Source: a virus
Taxonomy: Duplodnaviria; Heunggongvirae; Uroviricota; Caudoviricetes
Reading direction: 5' to 3' (one strand)
IMG/VR virus record: IMGVR_UViG_3300029702_000002
Length of the DNA stretch: 64,000 nucleotides
The notes under the pieces are model-generated. The model saw only the letters and a list, made by a program, of their open reading frames with translations. It made no database searches and had not been told where the DNA came from. A program made the position numbers and the translations under genes. Every line of letters begins with the position of its first letter. The first letter of the stretch is position 1. Below, one piece after another: positions 2,343 through 52,344 of the stretch.

Positions 2343-3251
2343 ATGATTGGTAAGTTGTCTGATTCTTTGATTGAAAATAAATACAACGAATTTAGAGAAG
2401 AAATATCTTTACTTTTTGACTATTTAAATCAGATAAATGATACAACAAAGAAAAATATAAAACGTCTTCTTAAAGAAGTGGAGTATGCACAAAATCCAGA
2501 TACTATTATTAATATTAATGAAACTATTAAGATTAAGTGTGGCACAACGTTAGCTCGCCATTTATGTTCAAACCCATATACAGGTTCAACATTAGAGATA
2601 GGTAACAGCGCCATTGATTTAGAAGAAAAGATAAGATTGTGTAATACTTTGAAAAATAAACAATATCAGTGGGTTATTACTGAAGCCTATGAGTTACTGG
2701 AAGACTATATTGAGGCAATATATGTCTATACTGTATGTGTTCGAAATGATTTATGGTCCTCAAGTGATTTTGGTAAGGTTGAAGATGATGAAATTGGGAA
2801 AAGGGAAGTTTATTACAGATTATTAAAAGCAAAAAGTAACCCATCGAAAAAAATAACTAAAATTTTCAGAAATAAAATACCTGGCTTCAAAGAGATAGAA
2901 ACAAACAACAAGATTGGCAAAAACTATCGCTTTAACATCAAGCTAATTGAACTACTAAGACATACAATAGTACACAATAGTGGACGATTCAATGATACAG
3001 AAAAATTTATAAATAAGGTTTTAGATGAATCTGAAATAAACGGTAAGAAAAGAGTTATTGGAGAAAGAGCTGTTAGAAGTTACATTACTAAAGTGCAAGA
3101 AGATGATATTGTGATGCTCTTAGAAAGACCATCTGAAATTTTAGGTTCTTTTGGTGGGTATTTTAACAGAGCAAAATTTTTACTAAGTGATATTTTAGAA
3201 TACTCACTAATCATTAAAGAAGAACTAAAATCATATCTAGGCAATCATTAA
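2343..3251 (+). CDS. AT-rich hypothetical protein with HEPN-like Rx4H motif (LRHTIVHNSG); candidate abortive-infection protein
   Basis: 302-aa ORF with markedly lower GC than neighbours; R-x4-H motif in C-terminal half; own terminator. Confidence 0.5.
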   Translation: MIGKLSDSLIENKYNEFREEISLLFDYLNQINDTTKKNIKRLLKEVEYAQNPDTIININETIKIKCGTTLARHLCSNPYTGSTLEIGNSAIDLEEKIRLCNTLKNKQYQWVITEAYELLEDYIEAIYVYTVCVRNDLWSSSDFGKVEDDEIGKREVYYRLLKAKSNPSKKITKIFRNKIPGFKEIETNNKIGKNYRFNIKLIELLRHTIVHNSGRFNDTEKFINKVLDESEINGKKRVIGERAVRSYITKVQEDDIVMLLERPSEILGSFGGYFNRAKFLLSDILEYSLIIKEELKSYLGNH

Positions 3252-3252
3252 C

Positions 3253-3282
3253 AAAAAAGGGGCCGAAGCCCCTTTGGATTTT
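3253..3282 (+). terminator. Intrinsic terminator (AGGGGC-CGAA-GCCCCT followed by T-run)
   Basis: GC hairpin plus U-tract directly after stop of 2343-3251. Confidence 0.65.
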
Positions 3283-3429
3283 GCGCTTAAAAAAGTGTTG
3301 CTAGGATGTTAGCAAGCTATGGTTAAGAACGTCTGCCGTAATTGTCTATCACAGCGTTGAGCTGTCTGGTTTATGTTAGCGGAGTCTTAATCGAGTTGAT
3401 TAAAAGGCCAAACCGCTCAACGCTGTGTC

Positions 3430-47224: not shown

Positions 47225-47922
47225 TACATACGCTCCTTGTAGTAGTCGACCAGCCACACCAGAGCCTCACCAGCGTTCTCCATTTCATTACCGGTGTTAA
47301 TAGCCTGCTCTTTGATGATGTTTTTTATGGTTTCTGCAACACGATCTGACGCATCGAAAGTTACTTTGAAGCGCATGGTCTGATGTTCCGCACCCACACG
47401 TTCGGTTTTCTCTCGTTTGTCGGTATCGACAGGCTCATCACTACCACGAGACAACGCCTCCAGTGCTTCAAGGTCGATTGCCGCCTCTTTTGCTAAAACC
47501 ATCGAGATTTCGTCGTCATACGGGGCGATTTCAGACAGTTGATAGTCAAGTTCTGACTGAATTTCTTCAATGAAGCGTTGCAATGCGATTTGGTCGTCTT
47601 CACCGTATCGCTCGTTGTCCACCAGTGACATCTGTTTAGCTACGACATCGCTAATTTTGCCCACAGAAAGCACCGGAACCGTTGAAATTCCTTGCTCAAT
47701 AGCAGCACGCCAGCGATGTTCGCCGCCGAGGATTTCAAAAAATCCATCTTCAAGTTCACGAGCCAAAATTGGCTTAAAAAAGCCCAATTTTTCGATAGAA
47801 CCTTTCAGTTTTTCAAAATTCTGCGCACCAACCGAATTGGTGTTCCAGGTATTCGGGCGAAGGTTGGCAACATCAACCTGCAAAATCGTGATTTTTACAT
47901 CCATTTTATTGCTACAATCCAC
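47224..47922 (-). CDS. ParB-like nuclease domain protein
   Basis: ParB N-terminal motif ILGGEHRWRAA. Confidence 0.65.
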   Translation of the reverse strand: MDCSNKMDVKITILQVDVANLRPNTWNTNSVGAQNFEKLKGSIEKLGFFKPILARELEDGFFEILGGEHRWRAAIEQGISTVPVLSVGKISDVVAKQMSLVDNERYGEDDQIALQRFIEEIQSELDYQLSEIAPYDDEISMVLAKEAAIDLEALEALSRGSDEPVDTDKREKTERVGAEHQTMRFKVTFDASDRVAETIKNIIKEQAINTGNEMENAGEALVWLVDYYKERM

Positions 47923-47986
47923 TAAGTAATCACTTACTTATTATAATAGCCAAATAACATACAAAAGGCACTAAGGAAAGAGGTTT

Positions 47987-49546
47987 ATGACTGTTCGGAT
48001 TGTATCTAACGCAGTTAATGCGCTTATTTCTGGCGCAGATGACAAGGTAAAGCAAATGGTGCAACAGATGTTGAGCTACGAAGTCGAGACTGGCGACTGG
48101 AAGGGCACAAGCACGATGTTCAACTGGAGTAAAAACTCGTTCCCTGCTGGCTTTGCCAAGCCTGTAGCGGCGAACTTGAACAAGGCGGGCATCAAATGTG
48201 TTCATATCCGCAAAGACAAAGCCCCGGCGCTTGGTAAACCAAATCCGGCGGTTAACCCATTCCCATACAATCCTGATTATGCGTATCAGGATCAGACTGT
48301 GGAAACACTGGTTCGAGAGGGAATGATGATTGCGCAGATCGCTACTGGTGGCGGGAAATCTAACGTTGCCTGCAAAGCAGCTGCACGTATCGGTCGAATG
48401 ACATTATTTTTAACAACCCGCTCTGTTCTGATGTTTCAAATGGCCGAAAACTTCCAGAGATCCATCGACTACCGCGCCGAAAATGGCGAACCGTGGTTAA
48501 AGGGCCAAAAGGTTGGAGTCATTGGCTCGGGTGAGTTCCAGGTATCACGACATATCAACGTCGCTACAGTTCAAACTCTGGCAAGTTTCCTTGAAGAACC
48601 ACCACGCGATGCAACACCAGATAAAAAGAGCTACCACCTCAAACGTCGGGAGTTGGTGAAACGCTTCCTTTCAAGTGTGTCTCTGCTTATTCTGGAAGAA
48701 GCGCATGAGTCTTCAGGCTCTAATTTCTATGACATTGCCAGATTATGTGTGAACGCAGACTATCGTCTGGCGCTTACAGCCACGCCGTTCATGAAGGATT
48801 CGACGGAAGCCAACATGCGCCTGATGGCGGTGGCCGGGCGAATTGAAATTAAAGTCACAGAAAAGTACCTGATTGATCGAGGCATTCTGGCAAAGCCGTA
48901 CTTCCTTTATCATAAAGTTGCCTACAAGCCAGACGAGGCCAGAATCAAGGCCGAACTTGCCAACAAACACCTCAATTTTAGAGTTGGTATGAGCACCGCC
49001 TACCAAAAGGCTTATCAGTTGGGGATCGTGTATAATTTGGGACGTAACGAGGCCATAGTGCGCGAGGCATTGCTTTATAAGCAACATTCACTCAACTGCA
49101 TGACTCTGGTTCGTCTTAAACGCCACGGGCAAATCCTGATGGAGATGATGAAGGAGTCAGGTCTTAAAGTTGATTTCATCTATGGGGAATCTAACCAGAC
49201 GACAAGGCAAGCAAAGCTGAACAGTTTAGCGTCTGGAGAAATAGATGTTTTAATAGGCTCGACTATTCTGGATGTCGGTGTTGATGTGCCAAGCGTTGGT
49301 GCGGTCATTCTTGCTGGTGGTGGGAAAGCAGAAGTTGAAATGAGGCAGCGTGTCGGTCGTGGCTTACGAGCCAAAAAAAATCAGGCAAACGTGTGTTTTA
49401 TCACTGATTTCATTGACATTAGCAACAAATACCTGTTGTCTCACTCTTATGAGCGAAAACACATCATCGACACCACACCTGGCTTTGCAGAAGGTGTATT
49501 GCCTATTGATGGAGCATTCGATTTTGGAGTTCTGAAACGAGATTAG
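47987..49546 (+). CDS. Superfamily 2 DNA helicase (DEAH box)
   Basis: Walker A ATGGGKSN, DEAH-like LILEEAHE, C-terminal helicase domain motifs. Confidence 0.8.
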   Translation: MTVRIVSNAVNALISGADDKVKQMVQQMLSYEVETGDWKGTSTMFNWSKNSFPAGFAKPVAANLNKAGIKCVHIRKDKAPALGKPNPAVNPFPYNPDYAYQDQTVETLVREGMMIAQIATGGGKSNVACKAAARIGRMTLFLTTRSVLMFQMAENFQRSIDYRAENGEPWLKGQKVGVIGSGEFQVSRHINVATVQTLASFLEEPPRDATPDKKSYHLKRRELVKRFLSSVSLLILEEAHESSGSNFYDIARLCVNADYRLALTATPFMKDSTEANMRLMAVAGRIEIKVTEKYLIDRGILAKPYFLYHKVAYKPDEARIKAELANKHLNFRVGMSTAYQKAYQLGIVYNLGRNEAIVREALLYKQHSLNCMTLVRLKRHGQILMEMMKESGLKVDFIYGESNQTTRQAKLNSLASGEIDVLIGSTILDVGVDVPSVGAVILAGGGKAEVEMRQRVGRGLRAKKNQANVCFITDFIDISNKYLLSHSYERKHIIDTTPGFAEGVLPIDGAFDFGVLKRD

Positions 49547-49649
49547 TTATGAGCGAAAAGAAAACAACTTATTGTCAGGTAGCATTGTCTGATAAGGCCA
49601 ATGACAAACTTGGAAAGTTTCAAGTGAAACTAAAAGAAAAAATATCAAA

Positions 49650-49826
49650 ATGTCTAAGGCTGAAGTCATAAATACCATTCTGGAACAATTGACAATGGCC
49701 GACTTTGACAAGGTTATATCTTCTGTCGGGGCTTCCGCTAAGACTCGTGAGAAAATCATGCGTATCTATGAGAACTCTAATATGACAAAGGAAGATCTCG
49801 AAACGCTATTAAGCAGATTAAAATAA
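49650..49826 (+). CDS. Small hypothetical protein (58 aa)
   Basis: Short ORF below track cut-off between helicase and lipoprotein gene. Confidence 0.3.
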   Translation: MSKAEVINTILEQLTMADFDKVISSVGASAKTREKIMRIYENSNMTKEDLETLLSRLK

Positions 49827-49852
49827 TCACGCTATCAATTAGGGAGACAAAG

Positions 49853-50317
49853 ATGAAGTCTCCCATACTGTTCACTTTCTGTTCTAAAACTATCATGAAA
49901 TACTCGCTTCTCCCTCTACTAACGTTACCAGTGTTGATGCTTACCGCGTGCCAATCACGCCCAATATCAATCCATGACGCCAAACCAGCACCGCAGGCCA
50001 AAGTGTTCAAGTATCAAAGCGCAGCGCCAGCTACGTTGGTGGTAATGAGAGACACAGGTTTTGTAGGAGCTGGATGTGATGCTTCCATTTTCATCAACGG
50101 CGAAACTGTCGCAAAACTGGCTACAGGCGAAAAAGCGACTTTCCATTTAAATGCCGGAGAATTAATTGTGGGTGCATCTCTTGAAGGTGCAGGTTTATGT
50201 GCTCTAAACCCCGCTCGTCAAGAGCGAGAAACGACTCTGAAGAATGGAGACACAAAAGCGTTCAGGGTGTTCACCAGCAATTCTGGTGACATCGACATTC
50301 TGCCAACAACTCTGTGA
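49853..50317 (+). CDS. Lipoprotein (lipobox LTAC)
   Basis: AGGGAGA site before ATG 49853; internal ATG 49895 would give a canonical 19-aa lipoprotein signal peptide. Confidence 0.6.
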   Translation: MKSPILFTFCSKTIMKYSLLPLLTLPVLMLTACQSRPISIHDAKPAPQAKVFKYQSAAPATLVVMRDTGFVGAGCDASIFINGETVAKLATGEKATFHLNAGELIVGASLEGAGLCALNPARQERETTLKNGDTKAFRVFTSNSGDIDILPTTL

Positions 50318-50321
50318 TGAC

Positions 50322-50846
50322 ATGACAACCAAAGATATTACCTACGGTATCCAAGCTGAACTCTGGCCGCGAGATTACACTAACGTTGAAAAACTACTGA
50401 TGTTCTGGCGCAGAGAACAAATTCCTGTAAGGGTCACTCTCGAAGATGGCCAGGCGTTTTGCATGTACGTTTATGGCCTCATGCCATCTCGTAACAAAGT
50501 TGACCTTTGCCCAGCCCCTTTTGACAAAGAAAATCGTATAAGGCTCCCACTTGAACGCATTAGTACAATTGAATCAGGTGTGGTTGACAGTATCGCTCAC
50601 GATTTCAAAGGTCGACTAACAGTTCACCCTGATTATGTCGATAATCGGCCATCACGCCGCGATTTTTTTGCAATTTGCAACCAAGCCTACAAAGCAAACA
50701 AATCTATAAGGGTGTACATGGCGGATGGCCGTGAAATTGAGGGGGTGTCAGCAGGCGCAGATGCTTGTCAGGTTACACTACGTGTCGAGAACGTTAGAAA
50801 AATAGTTGTTTTGTTCGATTGGGTTGAACGAATTTTGCCTTTTTGA
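50322..50846 (+). CDS. Hypothetical cytoplasmic protein (174 aa)
   Basis: ATG 5 nt after lipoprotein stop. Confidence 0.5.
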   Translation: MTTKDITYGIQAELWPRDYTNVEKLLMFWRREQIPVRVTLEDGQAFCMYVYGLMPSRNKVDLCPAPFDKENRIRLPLERISTIESGVVDSIAHDFKGRLTVHPDYVDNRPSRRDFFAICNQAYKANKSIRVYMADGREIEGVSAGADACQVTLRVENVRKIVVLFDWVERILPF

Positions 50847-50849
50847 GTT

Positions 50850-51158
50850 ATGAAATCGATATTGTTACCACCATTATTTTTACTTTGCTCAGTTGCGGCA
50901 AATGCAATGGACTATAAGCCTGTCATTCAGTCGCTGATGAATGACGTGTGCTCAACGTCTCAGAATGTATCAGTTTGCATGTATCAATTTTCGGCAGCCG
51001 TAAAAGCAGGAAAAGCGATAGGTGAGAATGTGGAACTGTGTAAGAAAGTGGCAAATGAAGAACGGGCAATGTTGGATTGCGAATCTAGCGAGTCATCGGC
51101 ACAGTTCGTTGATGCGCTATTTGACACCAATCGTAAGGCTGTAGAGTCTGTTCAATAA
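50850..51158 (+). CDS. Secreted small Cys-containing protein (102 aa)
   Basis: Signal peptide MKSILLPPLFLLCSVAANA; followed by hairpin 51171-51195. Confidence 0.55.
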   Translation: MKSILLPPLFLLCSVAANAMDYKPVIQSLMNDVCSTSQNVSVCMYQFSAAVKAGKAIGENVELCKKVANEERAMLDCESSESSAQFVDALFDTNRKAVESVQ

Positions 51159-51348
51159 ATCTATAAGGTTAATAACCGGCTAAGTCCGGTTATTATTTTT
51201 CACATCACTTCTTTATATCTATAAATCAAATAATCTAAATATATATAAGGTCGAAAGCCGGAATCGATTATTTATTTAGGGAACACCTTCGACGATCTCG
51301 CTTTTATTTCTAGGACTTTCATCCCTGCAAAAAATTTTAAAAAAACAC

Positions 51349-51377
51349 TTGCAATCTTTTTTCGCGTATCGATAATT
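51349..51377 (+). promoter_or_regulatory. Sigma70-like promoter (TTGCAA-N16-GATAAT) for AT-rich cassette
   Basis: Hexamers read from sequence about 65 nt upstream of ATG 51442. Confidence 0.45.
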
Positions 51378-51441
51378 GAACTCGTCGAAAGCGAAGACGC
51401 TAACGACAATAAATTTTAAATTTACATAAGGAAAAATTATC

Positions 51442-52092
51442 ATGGCTAACATTATCATTTCTAAAAAATCCATCATTGAAGCTGCTTCCATTGTATCCGA
51501 TGAACTGCGCGAAAAAGCAGATCTGGCAACTCAAACATATAACGAACATTATAAAAATGGTACGCACACTAAAGCAGACAAAGCAAATATGCAAGCTGCG
51601 ACCACTAAACTTGCTTACTTCATCAACAACGTCGTAAACGCAGTAGAAGACGAAAAATTATGCTCTGTTTTCTACTATGCGATTAAAGCAAGCAAACAAG
51701 CGCCAGAAGTATTTTTTCGTGATGCAATGACTAATAGTTATTCTCTGGAAAAACTGGTTTATCTGGTTAAATCAATTAAATCTGGTAAATGCGTTTATTC
51801 CATCGCTGATATGTCTGGATCTCGTGTATTCGCTTTAATCGATATGATTAACGACGAGATCGACACGTTCACCAATGGCGCTGTTTTCGATTTAATGAAT
51901 GAAGCTAAAAAAGCGTGTGAAATTAAATTGGACGCTGGCTATACTCAAGCCAACCAGTTGATCAATCTTTGCGAACGTCTTGGACTTGTTGAAAAAGTCA
52001 AAGGAGCTGGGAGTGCGAAAGCTGGTACTCAGCAATATCGCTTCATTAAAAATGATTTCTACAATTATTTAGCTGATGCTTTCAAAGCGTAA
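51442..52092 (+). CDS. AT-rich hypothetical protein (216 aa)
   Basis: Low-GC ORF with AAGGAAAAA site; no recognisable motif. Confidence 0.55.
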   Translation: MANIIISKKSIIEAASIVSDELREKADLATQTYNEHYKNGTHTKADKANMQAATTKLAYFINNVVNAVEDEKLCSVFYYAIKASKQAPEVFFRDAMTNSYSLEKLVYLVKSIKSGKCVYSIADMSGSRVFALIDMINDEIDTFTNGAVFDLMNEAKKACEIKLDAGYTQANQLINLCERLGLVEKVKGAGSAKAGTQQYRFIKNDFYNYLADAFKA

Positions 52093-52140
52093 TTAATGGA
52101 ATCAAGCGCCCATAGTGGGCGCTTTAAAGGAGCTTTAAAA

Positions 52141-52344
52141 ATGGTCAGCTATGACAAGATCCGCGCGGAATATCGCGCAAAGTATCGCGCTTATAAACTG
52201 GAATTAATCGATGATTTGATCGCGCAACGCGACCAATTAAATTTTACGTTTTCTGATTTGCTTAACAGCAAGCGAGATTGCAAGCGCAAACGTGAATACT
52301 TACGTTTAAGCGCATTAATCGGAAAACTTCAAAATTCTATTTAA
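52141..52344 (+). CDS. Small basic hypothetical protein (67 aa)
   Basis: ATG with AAAGGAGCTTTAAAA leader. Confidence 0.45.
   Translation: MVSYDKIRAEYRAKYRAYKLELIDDLIAQRDQLNFTFSDLLNSKRDCKRKREYLRLSALIGKLQNSI

Follow-up and report, generated by a model that had tools for sequence, protein, structure and literature searches.

An orphan FljA-family protein with a predicted tandem Sm/Hfq-like fold, encoded between two exported-protein genes of an SSU5-type phage-plasmid

What do three adjacent small genes with differently localised products do together at 49853-51158 of IMG/VR virus record IMGVR_UViG_3300029702_000002, a Caudoviricetes virus of which 64,000 nucleotides (the window) were analysed here? 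An earlier note on this DNA had read the three genes as encoding a lipoprotein, a cytoplasmic protein and a secreted cysteine-containing protein, forming a compact unit downstream of a helicase and possibly an exclusion or envelope-remodelling module. All three open reading frames (ORFs) are present on the plus strand, and the localisations were called correctly: an LTAC lipobox whose cysteine is invariant, a protein without a signal peptide, and a cleavable signal peptide that is conserved in homologues. What did not hold is the middle gene as an anonymous cytoplasmic member of an envelope module, since it encodes a full-length member of the FljA family with a predicted tandem Sm/Hfq-like fold. 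We put at roughly 60% the probability that the helicase operon of an SSU5/pHCM2/pMT1-type phage-plasmid ends with this locus, in which a post-transcriptional regulator and two exported morons are carried as co-inherited cargo rather than as a three-part envelope machine.

The identity of the element follows from its relatives and its gene content. The region 49500-51400 is 99.9% identical to non-mobilizable Escherichia coli plasmids of ~95-114 kilobases (kb), 99.2% identical to Escherichia phage CMS-2020a and, over a portion of its length, 78% identical to Salmonella phage SSU5, and the window encodes phage tail and terminase genes as well as ParB-like genes. Judged on these matches and genes, the window is an E. 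coli phage-plasmid of the SSU5/pHCM2/pMT1 type.

The argument turns on the middle gene. Its product matches Pfam PF03614 ('Repressor of phase-1 flagellin', FljA) at 278.2 bits against a cut-off of 24, with residues 5-171 aligned onto profile positions 1-170 of 170, that is, over the full length of the family, and it also matches PHROG 1444 (phrog_1444). An exhaustive phmmer search of 1.84 billion cluster representatives with this protein returned 25 matches in total, so the FljA family is tiny. One of them (P0082), which NCBI names 'phase 1 flagellin gene repressor FljA [Salmonella enterica]', aligns query residues 1-172 with its residues 4-173 at E 2e-24 and 35% identity, and the identity between the middle protein and Salmonella FljA is 35-36% from end to end. 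In the alignment both proteins carry an N-terminal DI[TS]YGxxAExWPRDY and a C-terminal FDWVxRI motif, with invariant positions at P35, P110, D114, F116, G141, G145 and D166-W167-V168, and their lengths are close (179 residues versus 174 for the window protein); the characterised family also includes FljA of E. coli and FljA z66 of pBSSB1. The middle protein has no hydrophobic N-terminus and no signal peptide. An in-frame ATG at 50244 was considered as its start and rejected: it overlaps the lipoprotein gene, and the 172-176-residue length of homologues speaks against it.

That these genes belong to the FljA family is already known from GenBank labels. Record JQ965645 names SSU5 genes 'putative repressor of phase 1 flagellin' and 'putative lipoprotein', and the copy in an S. 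Typhi phage-plasmid (P0060, on a 106.7-kb contig) is labelled 'repressor of fliC'. The SSU5_121/SSU5_122 pair, the pHCM2 pair and the Y. pestis pMT1 pair (WP_002214134, WP_002211796) are orthologues in the same slot, 77-82% identical to the window genes, and the RefSeq record of SSU5 carries a truncated 148-residue FljA-like product that begins at an internal Met. Our searches of the available literature turned up no functional study of the orphan FljA homologues of SSU5, pHCM2, pMT1 or other phage-plasmids, and nowhere in it did we find stated the core status of the gene, the Sm-like fold, or the division of homologues into flagellin-linked and orphan forms.

Structure prediction provides a second line of evidence on what the middle protein may do. 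Its AlphaFold2 model, built from a 24-sequence alignment, has a predicted local distance difference test score (pLDDT) of 85.8 and a predicted template modelling score (pTM) of 0.81, and consists of two consecutive units, each of one helix and five strands. In each, a helix at the N-terminus leads into a strongly bent antiparallel sheet of five strands, the arrangement that defines the Sm/Hfq-like fold, and the N-terminal and C-terminal halves align with each other in register in a profile-profile comparison (P 7e-4). Pfam Hfq (PF17209) weakly matches residues 120-162 (E 7e-4; 19.6 bits against a cut-off of 27) and NCBIfam Hfq gives 12.8 bits against a cut-off of 61.7; because these scores fall under the Pfam and NCBIfam cut-offs, the likeness to Hfq is one of fold only. 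When the FljA alignment profile was searched against PDB sequences, it returned archaeal Hfq-like proteins only, at E 0.2, and no solved structure for any FljA-family member. Foldseek comparison of the model with BFVD yielded no convincing two-domain match; what came up were small phage proteins with a single Sm-like unit and long alignments that were spurious. Whereas Hfq has one Sm domain per hexamer subunit, the FljA-like protein is predicted to carry two in a single chain, an arrangement that fits an RNA-binding translational repressor.

This agrees with the characterised members of the family. Canonical FljA-type repressors block translation of fliC messenger RNA (mRNA), acting post-transcriptionally such that the fliC mRNA persists while FliC protein is absent (PMC2652032), and the window protein presumably has the Sm-like fold and the RNA-binding, translation-blocking chemistry of Salmonella FljA. 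The database name used by NCBI, 'transcriptional regulator', would instead imply a DNA-binding protein that acts on a promoter of the element. The tandem Sm-like architecture fits post-transcriptional action and therefore counts against that label; neither the Pfam scan nor the AlphaFold2 model contains a helix-turn-helix or other DNA-binding domain, the nearest folds are Hfq proteins, and canonical FljA works after transcription (PMC2652032). We give a DNA-binding role very little credence.

The distribution of the gene places it firmly with the element. By tblastn, the FljA-like gene is found in 831 complete PLSDB plasmids, with Klebsiella (341), Escherichia (229), Enterobacter (92), Yersinia (62), Salmonella (60), Citrobacter (27) and Cronobacter (10) as host genera, and in 14 phage records, and its counts by genus parallel those of the neighbouring helicase. 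At all phage-plasmid loci examined, which comprised SSU5, Y. pestis pMT1, S. Typhi pHCM2, five Klebsiella lineages and several metagenomic contigs, the gene sits in one slot, with the helicase and a small ORF on its 5' side and a conserved gene for a 216-residue protein (phrog_1513) on its 3' side. Divergence of the FljA-like protein to as little as 28-45% identity with that of the window leaves the slot unchanged. The FljA-like gene is a core gene of these phage-plasmids and, alone of the trio, is conserved throughout the family.

A scan of GTDB species representatives produced 11 loci with FljA homologues. Five are chromosomal (Salmonella diarizonae, two Atlantibacter, Franconibacter and a Citrobacter metagenome-assembled genome, or MAG), and all five homologues lie directly 3' of a flagellin gene. 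The other six are of the phage-plasmid type with the helicase upstream, and none of these has a flagellin gene; the 216-residue gene follows in five of the six, the sixth (L024) stopping just past the FljA-like gene. No flagellin-like ORF occurs anywhere in the 64-kb window, and the window protein is therefore a member of the FljA family by sequence that fails its contextual hallmark, the partnership with a second flagellin gene that is co-transcribed with fljA in the fljBA arrangement. Unlike FljA, its gene does not stand 3' of a flagellin gene, sits in a phage-plasmid helicase operon with exported proteins on either side, and is kept in hosts without flagella. As a side observation, L023 and L024, GTDB MAGs labelled Bacillota / Candidatus Fimivivens, contain SSU5-like sequence with a helicase 82-93% identical to the window's, and in a chimeric 'Gemella morbillorum' protein (P0079) an FljA-like N-terminus is joined to unrelated sequence; binning or assembly contamination most likely accounts for the Firmicutes-assigned SSU5-like sequence and for the chimera.

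The retention of the gene across hosts bears directly on its target. The ratio of nonsynonymous to synonymous substitution rates (dN/dS) of the FljA-like gene lies between 0.08 and 0.25 in all unsaturated pairs, Klebsiella-Klebsiella pairs included. K. pneumoniae is without flagella and Y. pestis is non-motile. Since selected copies reside in such hosts, flagellin mRNA cannot be the sole target; given the conservation in non-flagellate hosts, a target other than fliC, be it an element transcript or a universal host mRNA, is about equally likely. The alleles of the Klebsiella lineage L015 (2501-3025) and of S. Typhi P0060 are 94% identical, and those of SSU5 and Y. pestis pMT1 97% identical. 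Within a genus, FljA-like alleles differ by up to 40% while the flanking helicase and 216-residue genes are 87-93% identical. This near-identity across genera, together with divergence within genera beside conserved flanks, indicates allele exchange at the FljA-like locus. Canonical FljA is ~35% identical to the main SSU5 clade and 27% and 18% identical to the divergent phage-plasmid clades, and a crude, midpoint-rooted neighbour-joining tree makes canonical FljA the sister of the main clade with the divergent clades outside, which suggests that chromosomal fljA derived from a phage-plasmid gene.

These observations raise an alternative to which we assign a substantial minority share of our belief, namely that the FljA-like protein is a post-transcriptional regulator intrinsic to the element. 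It would act on the element's own transcripts, such as those for replication, partition, lysis-lysogeny or the neighbouring exported proteins, or on a universal host mRNA, and would have no role in flagellin control, canonical FljA being a later offshoot. Its core status and purifying selection in Klebsiella (341 records) and Y. pestis (62 records) elements favour this explanation, as do the passage of alleles between host genera irrespective of motility, the concentration of family diversity almost wholly in phage-plasmids with canonical FljA nearest to a single clade, and the fact that no phage-plasmid copy adjoins a flagellin gene at the loci examined. Against it, fliC repression is the sole experimentally known activity of the family (PMC2652032), the N-terminal motif held in common with canonical FljA suggests a common partner, no candidate self-target was found, an Rfam scan of 47800-52200 returned nothing meaningful, and the tree behind the proposed ancestry is the crude one described above. 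A broader origin can be framed more tentatively still, in which FljA-type proteins were at first phage-plasmid tandem-Sm RNA-binding regulators of a non-flagellar target, either common to Enterobacterales hosts or belonging to the element, and possibly worked with the lipoprotein and the secreted protein, Salmonella FljA being their domesticated offshoot; this we regard as conceivable and rather unlikely.

The exported proteins on either side show a different pattern. The upstream gene matches phrog_890 at E 1e-51, and its product carries the lipobox L-T-A-C at residues 30-33 (16-19 if counted from the second start), Gln at position +2 and two further conserved Cys residues. The lipobox Cys is invariant in every homologue, down to 22-30% identity, within the variants LSAC, ITAC, LIGC, VAGC and MSGC, and the product is accordingly a predicted lipoprotein and a putative substrate of Lgt/LspA. 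The Shine-Dalgarno sequence AGGGAG precedes the ATG at 49853 only, not that at 49895; SSU5 and similar relatives start the lipoprotein at the equivalent of the second ATG. DUF2846 (PF11008) scores a sub-threshold 18 bits (cut-off 34.3) against the window protein and gives weak matches in 10 of 16 lipoprotein homologues (best E 9e-4), and the alignment profile of the lipoprotein found no matches among PDB sequences.

Close homologues of this lipoprotein lie beside the FljA-like gene in elements of Escherichia, Enterobacter, Yersinia, Salmonella and Citrobacter. In ~241 mostly Klebsiella plasmids, and in the divergent lineage L010, the gene just 5' of the FljA-like gene is on the opposite strand, and it too encodes a PHROG 890 lipoprotein (145 residues in Klebsiella; E 7e-42; lipobox VAGC or MSGC), 27-30% identical to the window's. 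PHROG 890 also occurs apart from FljA, between the lambda K-like and I-like tail genes of three unrelated siphophage groups (Table 1), just 5' of the tail-tip/host-range gene, and it is present in Vibrio phages as well. Receptor-masking lipoprotein genes such as T5 llp lie beside tail-tip genes, and lysogens typically express moron or exclusion lipoproteins (T5 Llp, phi80/N15 Cor, lambda Bor), which have the outer membrane as their site of action. Like them, the window protein is a small lipoprotein encoded by a temperate element; unlike them, it shows no sequence match to their families in Pfam or NCBIfam. The K-I slot is a classic, recurrent moron position, which might hint at receptor-related exclusion, and the lipoprotein gene is an accessory, moron-like gene.

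The downstream gene encodes a protein that begins with MKSILLPPLFLLCSVAANA followed by MDY, a 19-residue Sec-type signal peptide predicted to be cleaved between ANA and M, leaving a mature part of 83 residues with four Cys. RefSeq (PGAP) starts this gene at Met20 and drops the signal peptide (50850-50906 in the window; 7352-7408 in L002), leaving an 83-residue product, and many Klebsiella and Salmonella records do not annotate the gene. Homologues of 65-72% identity keep the N-terminal extension as an open, hydrophobic stretch that ends in AxA, P0159 and P0168 have Lys instead of Met at residue 20, and all subtypes have the form MK-[hydrophobic 12-14]-A-x-A, with an h-region that varies in sequence and keeps its hydrophobicity. 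Because the extension is retained, because residue 20 is Lys in two homologues and because remote subtypes look alike, we take the cleavable signal peptide to be real, and the product is probably a small secreted, periplasmic protein. PHROG 9536, to which it belongs, is found in 259 plasmids and the remote subtype PHROG 27673 in 151 more; L010 encodes a further subtype. A signal peptide and four Cys are common to all, and three of the Cys can be aligned. SSU5, pMT1 and most Enterobacter elements do not have the gene, and its alignment profile has no matches among PDB sequences.

The organisation of the three genes supports joint expression. Gaps of 4 and 3 nucleotides separate the first from the second and the second from the third, and a hairpin with a T-run, which marks the terminator, follows at 51170-51195, so that the compactness claimed by the earlier note is borne out. 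In Nei-Gojobori comparisons with relatives, dN is far below dS for each of the three, and they are therefore genuine coding genes. Trio and terminator form a compact unit that is probably co-transcribed. An identical terminator sequence stands 3' of the FljA-like gene where the secreted-protein gene is absent and 3' of the secreted-protein gene where it is present, and this gene is therefore a precise insertion or deletion inside the transcription unit.

Joint expression need not mean joint function. The Klebsiella lineages L009, L014 and L015 keep the FljA-like gene and lack both exported-protein genes, and the lipoprotein and secreted protein are thus dispensable accessory genes. Given that they are dispensable and that the lipoprotein occurs independently, the exported proteins and the regulator are probably not parts of a single machine. 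The interval from the small ORF to the FljA-like gene serves as a slot for variable cargo, in which some Klebsiella lineages carry unrelated genes instead (PHROGs 13473, 29155, 2320 and 31250), or nothing (Table 1). Among the cargo-slot genes, one has a signal peptide and one encodes a different lipoprotein with the lipobox LSGC.

It is here that the proposal of the earlier note has to be weighed, according to which the three proteins form a single exclusion or envelope-remodelling module that keeps other phages from adsorbing or injecting their DNA. In its favour, the genes are tightly packed and probably coupled in translation, a PHROG 890 lipoprotein, the FljA-like protein and a secreted four-Cys protein co-occur in the window, Klebsiella and L010 lineages, and PHROG 890 homologues elsewhere adjoin tail-tip genes, a setting like that of T5 llp. 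Homology to housekeeping envelope proteins, named in that note as grounds for giving up the idea, was looked for and not found. Against a single module, the middle protein is a member of a family of RNA-binding repressors and lacks membrane-associated features, either flanking gene is lost in many otherwise intact relatives in which the FljA-like gene stays, and elsewhere the lipoprotein occurs on its own. The three proteins give no PADLOC match at E<=0.01, and no known exclusion-lipoprotein or defence family in Pfam or NCBIfam is matched by the trio. The localisations, the compactness and the recurrence of the three families stand, while the central gene was put in the wrong category; 'exclusion or envelope remodelling' is a guess for the two exported proteins, and as an account of all three we consider it quite improbable.

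Several points nevertheless weigh against a regulator carried with two independent morons. Purifying selection in K. pneumoniae and the presence of the gene on Y. pestis pMT1 speak against flagellin being the target, and 35% sequence identity to a characterised FljA does not guarantee conserved function. A blastn-short comparison of the E. coli K-12 fliC leader with the window, a test of low power, gave chance-level matches only (E>=0.29). The same three families stand together even in the distant L010, where the lipoprotein gene is on the opposite strand and the secreted protein is of a remote subtype; such repeated re-association hints at a functional link that independent cargo does not explain. 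A promoter scan produced matches no better than shuffled expectation, and no promoter is claimed. The AlphaFold model of the lipoprotein, from a shallow alignment, has a pLDDT of 50.5 and is too poor for use.

The surroundings of the trio are collected in Table 1. The helicase opens the plus-strand block and serves as its upstream syntenic anchor; the trio does lie downstream of it, as had been claimed, although it does not adjoin it, the small ORF intervening. In this ORF an A6 run at 49637-49642 stands against A7 in a 99.9%-identical plasmid, a deletion of 1 nucleotide that is due either to an error in sequencing the homopolymer or to a mutation that has recently inactivated the ORF. On the minus strand upstream of the helicase are two ParB-like genes and a gene for an ABC-type ATPase. 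In PADLOC the helicase matches PbeA moderately well (best E 1e-22) and other helicases of defence systems more weakly; the PbeA matches probably reflect generic superfamily-2 helicase similarity.

Table 1. Coordinates of the locus in the window, of the variable cargo slot in other lineages, and of lipoprotein homologues among phage tail genes.
Feature	Sequence	Coordinates	Strand	Remarks
DEAD/DEAH-box helicase	window	47987..49546	+	519-residue ORF; named DEAD/DEAH helicase in relatives
Small conserved ORF, phrog_1466	window	49549..49826	+	92 residues in relatives; frameshifted in window
Predicted lipoprotein, PHROG 890	window	49853..50317	+	154 residues; alternative start 49895 gives 140 residues
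FljA-family protein, PF03614	window	50322..50846	+	174 residues; locus core gene
Small, probably secreted protein, PHROG 9536	window	50850..51158	+	102 residues; signal peptide, 4 Cys
Intrinsic terminator	window	51170..51205	+	TAATAACCGG-CTAAGT-CCGGTTATTA then T-run; ends transcription unit
Variable cargo slot	L014	767-2433		
Variable cargo slot	L015	1635-2174		
Variable cargo slot	L007	3383-3925		
Variable cargo slot	L016	1565-3368		
PHROG 890 homologue between tail genes	L011	2920-3366		phage mEp390 (E. coli)
PHROG 890 homologue between tail genes	L006	4959-5381		Klebsiella 54-kb phage-plasmid
PHROG 890 homologue between tail genes	L012	~2968-3375		P. aeruginosa phages

Everything past family membership and fold is what we infer for the working of this locus. 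As homology and fold suggest, the orphan FljA-family protein would bind the leader or leaders of one or more mRNAs and block their translation. In a flagellated E. coli host, fliC mRNA would be the obvious candidate target, and its silencing would stop flagellin synthesis, which would save resources and remove both a receptor of flagellotropic phages and an immune signal. Given the conservation of the gene in Klebsiella and Y. pestis elements, flagellin would be neither its only nor its ancestral target. The gene upstream, whose translation is here coupled to that of the regulator, would supply an outer-membrane-type lipoprotein from a moron family found in many temperate phages, and the gene downstream a small periplasmic disulfide protein; for this exported pair, modification of the lysogen surface or exclusion is the most plausible guess.

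Phage-plasmids of the SSU5/pHCM2/pMT1 type are very common in clinical E. coli, Klebsiella, Salmonella Typhi and Y. pestis, and the activity of their FljA-like protein may therefore matter in either of two ways. If flagellin is silenced, carriage of the element would covertly change motility, H-antigen, visibility to TLR5 and the inflammasome, and susceptibility to flagellotropic phages. If another RNA is targeted, as the non-flagellate hosts suggest, these proteins would constitute a new class of Hfq-like post-transcriptional regulators encoded by mobile elements, and the origin of the phase-variation repressor of Salmonella would also be explained.

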